Assembly (NCBI GenBank): GCA_904397895.1
Contig: CAJFOZ010000083.1
Location: 4,616 to 68,615 of the forward strand
Direction: 5' to 3'
Source of the DNA: an uncultured Clostridia bacterium
GTDB taxonomy: Bacteria; Bacillota; Clostridia; Oscillospirales; Acutalibacteraceae
Length of the DNA: 64,000 nucleotides
A program made the translations under genes and the position numbers. Under the pieces are notes generated by a model, which did not search any database, was not told where the DNA came from, and worked only from the letters and a program-made list of their open reading frames with translations. Shown piece by piece: positions 2,340-5,243 of the stretch (positions are counted from its first letter, which is position 1; each line of letters starts with the position of its first letter).

Positions 2340-4871
2340 TTATGCTGTTTCGATGCTGTTGTCGGCCTGAAGGTTTAACTTCTTCACCGCTTCCTCCCGC
2401 ATCTTGTACTTTAGGATTTTGCCGGCTGCGTTCATGGGGAATCCATCCACAAAGTCCACATACCGAGGCGTTTTGTGTTTAGCCATATGGGTGGATACGA
2501 ATTCTTTCAGTTCCTCCTCGGTCATGGTCTCGCCGGGCTTGAGCACCACGCAGGCCATGATCTCCTCGCCGTATTGCTTATCCGGCACGCCAATGACCTG
2601 CACATCCGATACCTTGGGATGGGTATAGATAAAGTCCTCGATCTCCTTGGGATAAATATTCTCACCGCCACGGATGATCATATCCTTGATGCGGCCGGTG
2701 ATCTTGTAGTTGCCGTTTTCATCCCGGCGGGCCAAATCGCCGGTGTGCAGCCAACCGTCTTCGTCAATGGCGGCGGCGGTGGCTTCGGGCATCTTGTAAT
2801 ACCCCTTCATGATGTTGTATCCTTTGGCCACAAATTCGCCGTCCACATTGTCGGGAAGATCTTCGCCGGTTTCCGGGTCCACGATCTTACATTGGACGCC
2901 AAACATACTGCCGCCCACTGTATTGACCCGGACGTCCAGGGAATCGGTGGTCTTGCTCATGGTGCATCCAGGAGAGGCCTCGGTCTGGCCGTAGGTGATG
3001 CAGATTTCCTTCATATTCATCTTGTCGATGACATCCTGCATGACTTTAATGGGGCAGGGGCTGCCGGCCATAATGCCGGTACGCATGTAGCTGAAATCGG
3101 TTTTGGGGAAATTCTCGTGCCCCAGCATAGCGATAAACATGGTGGGGACGCCGTGGAAGGCAGTGATATGTTCTTTGTTGATGCATTCCAGCCCTAAGCG
3201 AGGGGAGAAAGCGGGGATGGGGGACATAGTGGTGCCATGGGTCATAGCGGCAGTCATGGCCAGCACCATGCCGAAGCAGTGGAACATGGGGACCTGGATC
3301 ATCAACCGGTCGGCAGTGGAGAGATCCATACAGTCTCCGATGGCCTTGCCGTTGTTGACCACATTATAGTGGGTCAGCATGACGCCCTTGGGGAACCCGG
3401 TGGTTCCGGAAGTGTACTGCATATTGCACACATCGTGCTTATGGATGGCGGCTGCACGGCGGTATACATCCTCGATCGGCACCTTTTCGGCCAGGGCCAA
3501 GCTTTCCTCCCAAGTGTAGCATCCCTTTTGGGCGGAGTCTACGGTGATGATATTGCGCAGGAAGGGGAGGCGTTTGATGTGCAGGGGCTTGCCTTTTTCA
3601 GCCGTTTCCAGTTCGGGACACAGCTCCTTGATGATCTGGATGTAGTCGGAATCCTTGTACCCGTCGATCATGACCAGGGTATGGGTATCCGACTGGCGCA
3701 GCAGATACTCGGCCTCATGGATCTTATAGGCAGTGTTGACGGTGACCAATACCGCGCCGATTTTGGTGGTAGCCCAGAAGGTGATGAACCACTGGGGAAC
3801 ATTGGTGGCCCAGATGGCTACGTGATCCCCAGGTTTGACCCCCATGGCGATGAGGGAACGGGCAAAGGTATCCACATCGTCCCGGAATTCCTGGTAGGTG
3901 CGGGTATAATCCAAAGTGGTGTAGCGGAAGGCGTACTGGTCGGGGAACTCCTCCACAATACGGTCCAGCACCTGAGGGAAGGTCAAATCAATCAGATGCT
4001 CCTTGGGCCAGACGTATTTACCGGTTTTGGCGTTGTTGTCGTAAAGGCGGCGATCCTCTACCGGGGAATCCATATATTGGCTCATGAAATTGGCATAGTG
4101 GGGGAAGACGATACCGGCGTCGTTTAAATCCGGGGCGTATTGTTTGAGCCATTCCAGGGATACATAACCCTCGTAGTTGATGGATTTCAAGGCCCGGATG
4201 ATGGATTTCATAGGCAGATCGCCTTCGCCCATCATGCGGTAGGATACTTGTCCATTTTCCATTACGGAATCCTTAATGTGGGCATACTTGATGTAAGCCC
4301 CAAGATTCTGTACTGTCTGTTCGGGCGTCTCTCCAGCGAAACGGTAGGGGTGATGGATGTCCCACAAAGCGGCCACGTTATCGCTCTCGATCTGATCCAA
4401 CAGATTGCGCAGGCGGGCGGTGTCGGTGTAAACGCCGTTGGTCTCCACCAAAAGGGTCACGTCCTTCTCCTCAGCGTAGGGAGCTAGTTCCTGCAAAGAG
4501 GACAGCACCAATTGATCGTCCACTTCCCCCTGGGGAGCGGCCGTCAAGTCGCCCAGGACACGGATGTAGGGCGTGCCCAGCTTATGGGCCAAATCCATGT
4601 ATTGCTTTAACTCCCGGATGGTCTCCTCTTTGCGGTCGGCGAATTTAAGGGAGCATCCCGAAGAGAGACATGGGATCTCCAAATGGAGTTTTCTAAGCTG
4701 TTCGATGGTTTTGGGTAGATTGTTTTCCTGAAAAGGACGGCCCGATATGGAAAAGATCTCATTGTCCAGCCCACGGACCTCAATACCCTGGAATCCAAAG
4801 TCTTTGGCCATGGAATAAATGTCCGGCCAATCAAAATCCGGACAACCTAATGTTGAAAACGACAGTTTCAT
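2340..4871 (-). CDS. Fusion of xylose-isomerase-like/AP-endonuclease-2 TIM barrel and AMP-forming acyl-CoA synthetase
   Basis: N-terminal ~270 aa with LVET, WDIHH, HIKD and SLEW metal motifs; C-terminal QYTSGTTGFPKG, YGQTE, LHTGD, GRIKDMIIRGGENIYP and PMNAAGKI ANL motifs; AGGAGG RBS. Confidence 0.9.
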   Translation of the reverse strand: MKLSFSTLGCPDFDWPDIYSMAKDFGFQGIEVRGLDNEIFSISGRPFQENNLPKTIEQLRKLHLEIPCLSSGCSLKFADRKEETIRELKQYMDLAHKLGTPYIRVLGDLTAAPQGEVDDQLVLSSLQELAPYAEEKDVTLLVETNGVYTDTARLRNLLDQIESDNVAALWDIHHPYRFAGETPEQTVQNLGAYIKYAHIKDSVMENGQVSYRMMGEGDLPMKSIIRALKSINYEGYVSLEWLKQYAPDLNDAGIVFPHYANFMSQYMDSPVEDRRLYDNNAKTGKYVWPKEHLIDLTFPQVLDRIVEEFPDQYAFRYTTLDYTRTYQEFRDDVDTFARSLIAMGVKPGDHVAIWATNVPQWFITFWATTKIGAVLVTVNTAYKIHEAEYLLRQSDTHTLVMIDGYKDSDYIQIIKELCPELETAEKGKPLHIKRLPFLRNIITVDSAQKGCYTWEESLALAEKVPIEDVYRRAAAIHKHDVCNMQYTSGTTGFPKGVMLTHYNVVNNGKAIGDCMDLSTADRLMIQVPMFHCFGMVLAMTAAMTHGTTMSPIPAFSPRLGLECINKEHITAFHGVPTMFIAMLGHENFPKTDFSYMRTGIMAGSPCPIKVMQDVIDKMNMKEICITYGQTEASPGCTMSKTTDSLDVRVNTVGGSMFGVQCKIVDPETGEDLPDNVDGEFVAKGYNIMKGYYKMPEATAAAIDEDGWLHTGDLARRDENGNYKITGRIKDMIIRGGENIYPKEIEDFIYTHPKVSDVQVIGVPDKQYGEEIMACVVLKPGETMTEEELKEFVSTHMAKHKTPRYVDFVDGFPMNAAGKILKYKMREEAVKKLNLQADNSIETA

Positions 4872-4900
4872 TTTCCGTTCCTCCTATTTTTTATCCGATT

Positions 4901-5185
4901 CAAAAGAAAAACGCCTTCGCCTCCCGCCTATGCAAGAGACGAAAGCGCAACACTTCCGCGGTACCACTCTTTTTGATATCGACACCGATATCCCCTTAAA
5001 GGCATCCAATCAATGCCCTCCCTTGATAACGGCGGGAACCCCGTTCCAACCTACTGAGCCCAACAAAGTGAAGCTGTTCAGCCGACTGCTCCGGGACCAG
5101 CGCAAATACTTCTTTGCCTCCGCCTCGCACCATCCGACGGCTCTCTGAACCAAACTAGGTATTTGCTTTTCCCATCGTAGCATTT
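4901..5185 (-). promoter_or_regulatory. T-box riboswitch, probable Leu (CUG) specifier
   Basis: Stem I with AGAGA and GGTGCGA motifs; specifier strand GCTGG; T-box AAAGAGTGGTACCGCG (4957-4972); antiterminator CGTCTCT; terminator followed by TTTTC. Confidence 0.9.
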
Positions 5186-5214
5186 AAAACCATATGAAAT
5201 TACAAAGTATTCCC

Positions 5215-5243
5215 ATTATACTGCATTTTTTTATTTTTGTAAA
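5215..5243 (-). promoter_or_regulatory. SigA promoter of the T-box leader
   Basis: TTTACA-17 nt-TATAAT. Confidence 0.7.

Follow-up and report, generated by a model that had tools for sequence, protein, structure and literature searches.

T-box riboswitches act through a choice between two structures, an antiterminator that is stabilised by uncharged tRNA and a terminator that charged tRNA allows to form. The closest described examples to the one considered here are the leucine T-boxes of leuS, leuA and the ilv-leu operons. The present element lies in a 64,000-nucleotide stretch of DNA from an uncultured Clostridia bacterium (contig CAJFOZ010000083.1, positions 4,616 to 68,615), the whole of which is called the window, and stands before a gene for an 843-amino-acid (aa) fusion of a TIM barrel with an AMP-forming acyl-coenzyme A (acyl-CoA) ligase, named P0001. 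The riboswitch is a standard leucine T-box of the ordinary type, and the locus as a whole is a real, ordinary riboswitch on an unusual and widespread target.

On the side of the chemistry, labelling has long shown that anaerobes form leucine from isovalerate. For rumen microbes, its formation by carboxylation is stated in PMC7356843. The acyl-CoA synthetase MbcS of Staphylococcus aureus is active on 2-methylbutyrate and isobutyrate and poor on isovalerate (PMC10026030), so that the activation of isovalerate could fall to an enzyme of its own. A Bacteroides AMP-forming ligase encoded beside IOR has been assayed as an arylacetate-CoA ligase and is read as biosynthetic in PMC13285125.

A preliminary description of the locus had proposed an isovalerate-CoA ligase induced by leucine starvation. 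We judge it reasonably probable that a leucine T-box with specifier CUG gates the fusion and that the ligase makes isovaleryl-CoA from isovalerate, the first step in rebuilding leucine. The isovalerate role is supported by context, namely the co-occurrence with VorB, the presence of IlvE/Vor clusters in genomes without a leuB match, and a complementary MbcS-like ligase under an isoleucine T-box. When leucine is short, uncharged tRNA-Leu(CAG) would pair with CUG and UGGU, the antiterminator would be held and transcription would read through. A gene that is made when leucine is short points to supply rather than breakdown. P0001 would convert isovalerate, ATP and CoA into isovaleryl-CoA, AMP and pyrophosphate, Vor with reduced ferredoxin would add CO2 to give 2-oxoisocaproate, and IlvE would transaminate this to leucine.

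The T-box leader

All elements of the leader and of the gene at 2340-4871 (P0001) are on the minus strand of the window. The source genome, labelled G000, is 86% complete. The features are the following.

5215..5243, minus strand: predicted sigma-A-type promoter, TTTACA-17-TATAAT, 11/12 consensus match
4932..5187, minus strand: T-box leader (RF00230) with Stem I, II, IIA/B, III and antiterminator, 90.4 bits, E 1.9e-20
5093..5173, minus strand: Stem I, comprising the basal helix (5173-5170 with 5096-5093), the AG bulge and the terminal loop
5098..5100, minus strand: specifier codon CUG (Leu), followed by G5097
4934..4971, minus strand: antiterminator, UGGUACC bulge at 4966-4960
4901..4948, minus strand: intrinsic terminator that overlaps the antiterminator's 3' strand, with a 17-pair stem and a U tract
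4880..4885, minus strand: ribosome-binding site AGGAGG
2340..4871, minus strand: 843-aa fusion gene, TIM barrel and AMP-forming acyl-CoA ligase (P0001)
4146..4808, minus strand: PF01261 xylose-isomerase-like barrel, aa 22-242, with predicted metal ligands E143, D171, H198 and E240 present
2418..3965, minus strand: ANL ligase domains PF00501/PF13193, aa 303-818
2290..2319, strand not assigned: perfect 12-bp hairpin directly after the stop codon

A promoter, a complete T-box and a terminator had been described before the gene, and all three hold up. The promoter (5243-5215) is the top-scoring of seven promoter-like sites in 1500-6500, although such sites occur at chance frequency (6.0 in shuffles). 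The match to the RF00230 covariance model spans the entire model, positions 1-219. It falls 2.6 bits short of the gathering threshold of 93, for which reason a gathering-level Rfam scan of the window missed the T-box, reporting two tRNAs and nothing else, whereas a scan by E-value found it. The antiterminator with its 7-nt UGGUACC bulge is the minimum-energy fold at -12.2 kcal/mol (z -1.38, which alone is not significant), and for the terminator the folding energy is -34.1 kcal/mol (z -4.45), unequalled in 200 shuffles. The two structures have a strand in common and are mutually exclusive. At the other end of the gene, the hairpin after the stop codon indicates that the transcript is likely to carry a single gene. 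A single gene after the leader is what had been claimed; the description of it as a plain ligase was incomplete, as the protein is a fusion of a PF01261 barrel with the ligase.

The specifier codon

Folding places GCUGG (the specifier strand G-CUG-G, 5101-5097) in the specifier loop, adjoining the helix GGGA/UCCC (5173-5170/5096-5093). The loop is short, with 3 and 5 nt, and is without the usual AGUA/GAA motif. A leucine codon lies 2-4 nt before the end of the loop and is conserved in orthologues, and the cognate tRNA-Leu(CAG), with discriminator A (A-CCA end), is encoded in the genome.

The source genome contains 13 T-boxes, which allow the register to be calibrated by eye. In all 11 of the others with a recognisable target the cognate codon ends one base before the basal helix. 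For the leucine targets this codon is CUG in leuA (CUG-G, as in the P0001 leader) and CUC in leuB (CUC-A); elsewhere it is AUC for ilvBH-cimA, UAC for tyrS, UUC for pheS, UGG for three trp leaders, UGC for cysE, ACC for thrS and GCC for alaS. The leuA, cimA and leuB targets were named by profile or sequence search, and the others are presumed from the look of their sequences. None of the 13 T-boxes found has leuS (C50:2507-4900, minus strand) as its target, whilst leuA, leuB and P0001 each have one.

From at least 603 confirmed relatives of the fusion, 80 loci were taken for leader analysis; L073 and L082 were left out for want of a usable 5' end, leaving 78. Stem I and a T-box are present in 54 of the 78, and on the alignment all 54 read CUC in the same column as the CUG of the window; in L058, L063 and L064 a one-base alignment gap lies beside the triplet. 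The base that follows the triplet is A in 24 leaders, G in 12, C in 11, U in 4 and a gap in 3. The -1 frame varies between ACU, UCU and GCU (Thr, Ser, Ala), and the +1 frame is UCN (Ser) in the homologues as against UGG (Trp) in the window. Both frames therefore change amino acid, leaving leucine alone common to all leaders, and the ambiguity between leucine and serine is broken by the window leader, with its CUG against their CUC. A leader in a same-genus genome also reads CUG, four other relatives read CUC, and in a survey of the class a full leader was found at 12 of 29 loci, all with CUC, although at least two of these repeat the 80-locus set. Across 15 hand-chosen leaders all 60 cells of the basal helix are paired, 13 of them compensatory, and none of 500 shuffles scores as high.

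The calibration, the 54 CUC leaders and the covariation of the helix that sets the register together bear out the earlier reading of G-CUG-G as leucine. Neither of the registers that had been named as refuting it, GCU (Ala) and UGG (Trp), is conserved among the 54 leaders, and both are rejected on the grounds that frame 0 alone keeps one amino acid and that the helix covaries. The UGGU bulge had been over-read in one respect. It is compatible with discriminator A, as was said; it does not separate leucine from tryptophan, because UGGU is common to leucine and trp leaders. It is present in all three trp T-boxes of the source genome, whose tRNA-Trp has discriminator G, and for Trp T-boxes the TBDB collection gives U in 46% (PMC7778990).

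No specifier was called at 24 loci, of which 20 have no T-box, two are cut short, one lacks Stem I and one is degenerate. In L091 (871-1231) the promoter runs straight into Stem II, possibly a truncated or decaying T-box. The degenerate leader of L079, upstream of 6001, is possibly another T-box in decay.

The fusion protein and its barrel

The ligase part of P0001 consists of PF00501 and PF13193 and has the hallmarks of the ANL superfamily, namely the motifs P-loop (486-496), YGxTE (YGQTE, 627-631), TGD (710-712), GRxKD (GRIKD, 726-730) and the C-terminal lysine (K818). They are nearly invariant among 21 aligned homologues. An AlphaFold model (predicted local distance difference test 79, predicted template modelling score 0.60) confirms the ANL fold, and the closest Foldseek structures, about 21-30% identical, are ligases of aryl and coumarate acids. 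The best curated NCBIfam model, PRK12583 (NF009233), matches aa 291-835 with E 3e-211 and a score of 702.6 against a cut-off of 832, which is not passed. P0001 passes no curated NCBIfam cut-off, and MbcS (NF047394) is not among its 25 best models. The fusion is common, and the same three domains occur in all 120 of the protein matches listed, the few named ones being labelled AMP-binding protein or fatty-acyl-CoA synthase. Carriers that have been cultured include Thermoclostridium caenicola (L016), Ruminiclostridium sufflavum (L090) and Sporomusa ovata (L080). Sequencing runs gave six weak matches, all contigs, with RNA shares of 0.06-0.10; the four examined yielded short pieces only.

The N-terminal domain has the predicted PF01261 fold and the E/D/H/E metal ligands, at positions that are presumed by analogy to ketose epimerases from matches that are themselves weak. 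Among its relatives are Art22, D-tagatose 3-epimerase, AsbF and MJ1311, all weak matches with a best E of 3e-10. No NCBIfam model covers the barrel at E 1e-25, and in the ESM Atlas it falls in generic sugar-phosphate isomerase/epimerase clusters. All six residues predicted for the active site are kept in 112 of 130 loci. Among the 30 loci below 55% identity, 15 have a decayed site, several of these being Vor-IlvE clusters. Some ligases are unfused. The barrel is the next gene in L106, L107 and L109, and there is no barrel within 1.5 kb in L108, L110 and L111. The barrel is likely to be accessory, with thioester formation possible in its absence; speculatively, it would bind 2-oxo acids in a metal-dependent manner and so tune the ligase.

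Partner enzymes and gene clusters

In the source genome leuA and leuB are under leucine T-boxes and cimA-leuCD is under an isoleucine T-box, such that isovalerate salvage would be a cheaper second route, with de novo synthesis also present. A four-gene Vor operon (C60:23699-27003, minus strand; L115) encodes a 68-aa ferredoxin-like protein followed by alpha, beta and gamma subunits, and its VorB passes NF005507 with 550.7 bits against a cut-off of 399. An IlvE-like gene on C31 is 54-60% identical to the IlvE of the clusters described below. A Vor-type oxidoreductase and a branched-chain aminotransferase are hence found in the same genome, in which, at 86% completeness, no acyl-CoA dehydrogenase match was found. 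The Vor operon is preceded by a 237-aa ATP-binding-like gene, a homologue of which, without an NCBIfam match, precedes Vor in ten of ten regions. The genome also has two IorAB modules (C16:44296-50224, minus strand, and C69:122-3734, plus strand), each with a gene that by eye we take to be phenylacetate-CoA-ligase-like. One module has an ACT-like gene and a transporter beside tyrS and the other is beside trp genes; both are likely to serve aryl-acid salvage.

The co-occurrence of the ligase with VorB and leuB was scored in 120 genomes of the class, at least 95% complete apart from the source genome, with one genome (G122) left out. A ligase match was accepted at E 1e-150, fused or unfused. The ligase was found in 62 genomes, VorB in 88 and leuB in 72. 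VorB accompanies the ligase in 61 of the 62 ligase-bearing genomes, as against 27 of the 58 ligase-free ones. A leuB match is missing from 28 of the 62, and every one of these 28 has VorB. One genome, G085, has eight VorB-like matches and no ligase match.

At the 78 closest loci the gene is mostly solitary, with no conserved pathway neighbour. Ten of the 62 ligase genomes encode the ligase and VorB on the same strand and no more than about 12 kb apart, and in six of these ten regions the fusion forms a single same-strand cluster with IlvE and Vor subunits, whilst in the remaining four it is merely near Vor. The order in G074, G066, G103 and G124 is LeuA-like gene, fusion, IlvE, a 230-aa ATP-binding-like gene, Vor subunits and an XRE-cupin gene, with an MbcS-like ligase next in three of them; the fourth region ends before that point. 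G110 and G095 have most of the same genes, rearranged. In all, the MbcS-like ligase is seen in four of the six clusters. IlvE and VorB score over their curated cut-offs in the clusters tested (for IlvE, two clusters), and none of the six genomes has a leuB match. A motif search found a T-box with CUC in cluster G110 and another, also CUC, in region G052.

LeuA-like genes precede the fusion in distant clades. They keep the HMGL-like and LeuA regulatory domains, and the R-D-G-x-Q motif of the LeuA and CimA of the source genome is missing from all ten that were aligned. From these sequence features the catalytically dead neighbour may possibly be a leucine sensor; no such pseudo-LeuA gene was found in the source genome. 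A LeuA-like gene without the motif lies directly upstream of the fusion in L066, L068, L101-L104, L112, L244-L249 and L253. A gene for an Amidohydro_2 protein of about 270 aa recurs beside the fusion (L101, L102, L104, L245, L247, L248), and contig C22 of the source genome holds a homologue with 46% identity.

A second T-box and ligase in the window

The window holds a second T-box with a ligase gene of its own.

49510..49764, plus strand: T-box with specifier AUC (Ile) at 49597-49599, 92 bits
49909..50502, plus strand: XRE-helix-turn-helix/cupin protein
50496..52142, plus strand: second ANL ligase, nearest model MbcS (NF047394), 487 bits against a cut-off of 850, not passed

P0001 and this partner ligase are 26% identical. 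The AUC specifier recurs in five other genomes. In a metagenome scan of the partner ligase, from which 16 of 80 loci were left out as short or cut on the 5' side, a T-box motif was found at two of the 64 loci examined, one with AUC and one with GUC. The T-boxes before XRE-cupin and MbcS-like genes in L190 and L248 (at 394) appear by eye to read valine (GUC and GUA). These readings suggest a specifier switch between isoleucine and valine among the T-boxes of the MbcS-like ligase, and the partner ligase is likely to handle 2-methylbutyrate and isobutyrate in the manner of MbcS. That the MbcS-like ligase goes with an Ile/Val switch and P0001 with a leucine switch would be the best single argument for isovalerate.

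The XRE-cupin and MbcS-like genes lie just downstream of the fusion in L025 (8601-10855) and L078 (10264-12381), and regulator and ligase are a single protein in L078 and L248. In the window luxS (52161-52640) follows the partner ligase. Clo1313_1686 of Clostridium thermocellum was considered as a possible studied homologue and rejected, since its cloning primer suggests a probable likeness to the partner ligase and not to P0001. That protein had no acetyl-CoA synthetase activity (PMC8863071).

Weighing the proposed isovalerate role

Several observations tell against isovalerate salvage under leucine control. The source genome has leuA, leuB and leuCD and does not need a salvage route for prototrophy, and its P0001 gene does not adjoin Vor. 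The substrate is not given by sequence or model, since the profile match is below cut-off and the fold matches are distant. The specifier CUG is a minor one for leucine, at 7% in TBDB (PMC7778990). The T-box is absent from 20 of the 78 relatives, including L014, L061 and L076, which are 83-85% identical, and the motif search found none in five of the six Vor-IlvE clusters. In the class survey leuB is kept in 34 of the 62 ligase genomes, and a ligase match is lacking in 27 of the 88 VorB genomes and in 7 of the 35 that are VorB-positive and leuB-negative. The surveyed genomes are moreover kin, so the association of ligase and VorB is overstated. Finally, the conserved metal site of the barrel is unexplained by an isovalerate pathway.

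This last point leads to the alternative that survives best, although it is unlikely. The switch would be leucine-specific, but the acid activated by the ligase would be another one related to leucine, whether isocaproate, 3-methylcrotonate or a hydroxy acid, with the metal-dependent barrel catalysing a second step of an undescribed route to 2-oxoisocaproate. Plain isovalerate activation requires no barrel, Amidohydro_2 protein or LeuA copy, yet the predicted barrel site is widely kept (112/130), the barrel follows three of the unfused ligases as the next gene (L106, L107, L109), and the other two genes recur nearby. The decay of the site in half of the 30 distant loci, several of them Vor-IlvE clusters, speaks against such a step, as do the three unfused ligases with no barrel in reach (L108, L110, L111) and the lack of an acyl-CoA dehydrogenase match in the source genome. 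The co-occurrence with Vor, furthermore, indicates a C5 acyl-CoA.

Less likely still is that isovaleryl-CoA chiefly primes the iso-branched fatty acids of the membrane, so that scarce leucine is spared, and is not carboxylated to leucine. Branched fatty acid synthesis in S. aureus draws on MbcS (PMC10026030), the model closest to the partner ligase, and the source genome is capable of making leucine de novo. The clusters, however, contain IlvE and Vor and no recognised fatty-acid genes, and the 28 ligase genomes without a leuB match require another source of leucine.

It is improbable that P0001 acts broadly on branched- or medium-chain acids as an acyl-CoA synthetase, or supplies acetyl-CoA to LeuA, under a leucine T-box that is loose or inherited control. 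The relatives without a T-box (20/78) and the LeuA-like gene upstream of the fusion in distant clades would fit. A leucine specifier in 54 of 54 leaders spanning many families would not, and nor would LeuA-like neighbours of which ten in ten aligned lack R-D-G-x-Q, many of them in genomes without a leuB match. Least credible by a wide margin is a shifted specifier frame that would give UGG (Trp) or GCU (Ala): UGGU can pair with A73 and, by wobble, with the G73 of tRNA-Trp, and TBDB allows both the -1 and the +1 frames (PMC7778990), but the +1 codon is UGG here and UCN in the homologues, the -1 codon varies between ACU, UCU and GCU, and a UGG reading requires the opening of an A-U pair of the covarying helix.

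Isovalerate activation under leucine control is therefore retained as the preferred reading. More tentatively, and with slightly less than even confidence, P0001 may be the leucine arm of a T-box-gated salvage of branched-chain acids that is widespread in Clostridia. A barrel-bearing isovalerate-CoA ligase under a leucine T-box and an MbcS-like ligase under an Ile/Val T-box would both feed one Vor and IlvE, providing the sole route to leucine where leuB is absent, with a dead LeuA copy acting as leucine sensor.

Other features of the window

531-2090, minus strand: protein with TPR, SUFU and Imm33 domains, immunity-like, downstream of the ligase and in the same position in same-genus genomes
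5299-6096, minus strand: upstream of the promoter, a gene for a lysozyme-like glycosyl hydrolase of family 25 whose N-terminus is hydrophobic
10146-17978, minus strand: 2610-aa open reading frame that looks secreted, with cohesin-like and dockerin-like stretches, by eye a possible ZmpA-type metallopeptidase
18594-18808, minus strand: two tRNA-Ser genes, anticodons GCT and TGA

Comparison with known systems

In some Clostridia, T-boxes are reported to precede genes for a 2-oxoacid:ferredoxin oxidoreductase or a phenylacetate-CoA ligase (Vitreschak 2008, Gutierrez-Preciado 2009). Should this be the case, T-box control of acid salvage is already in print and only its leucine arm would be new. If the isovalerate role is correct, there is a specific gene for isovalerate activation in about half of the sampled Clostridia genomes (62/120), with a built-in regulatory read-out. 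It would explain the leucine supply of many gut and digester bacteria without leuB, and would extend T-box regulons to the salvage of fermentation acids with CO2 fixation. P0001 is a candidate for a gene of the isovalerate-to-leucine route, which rumen physiology has recognised for a long time, and its conserved barrel poses a clear functional question.

In the literature searched, of which two key T-box reviews are not part, no paper names an isovalerate-activating gene or its T-box control. In the same literature, no full-text paper joins a T-box with a CoA ligase, acyl-CoA synthetase or oxidoreductase, and none joins the reductive carboxylation of isovalerate with isovaleryl-CoA or an acyl-CoA synthetase. 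The term 'CoA' is absent from the main text of PMC7778990, PMC2494555 and PMC3766115 and from three supplements of PMC2494555, and the T-box table of PMC3766115 (supplement 2) has no acyl-CoA ligase fusion among the targets in its 20 Clostridium rows.

The P0001 leader shares with the leucine T-boxes of leuS, leuA and the ilv-leu operons the full architecture, the position of the leucine codon and the UGGU bulge. It differs from them in its target, an acyl-CoA ligase fusion, in the short loop without AGUA/GAA and in the minor codon CUG. The chemistry proposed for P0001 is the same as in the rumen anaerobes of Allison and co-workers, where isovalerate, 2-methylbutyrate and isobutyrate are reductively carboxylated to leucine, isoleucine and valine; candidate genes for that route are all present in the source genome and are clustered in relatives.

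Among ligases, MbcS (NF047394) is an AMP-forming short branched-chain acyl-CoA synthetase and the nearest model for the partner ligase, whereas for P0001 it is outside the 25 best models, is poor on the proposed acid and feeds lipid synthesis (PMC10026030). The fatty acid CoA ligases of NF009233 (PRK12583) are the best model for P0001, though below the cut-off, and P0001 adds a barrel of 270 aa. Unlike the PF01261 proteins Art22, D-tagatose 3-epimerase, AsbF and MJ1311, with which it has the superfamily and the E/D/H/E positions in common, the P0001 barrel is fused to a ligase, and it matches them only weakly. The arylacetate-CoA ligase and IorAB of Bacteroides follow the same logic of an AMP-forming ligase with a 2-oxoacid:ferredoxin oxidoreductase, and two such modules are apparently encoded in the source genome, but they involve another ligase family, another acid and no barrel.

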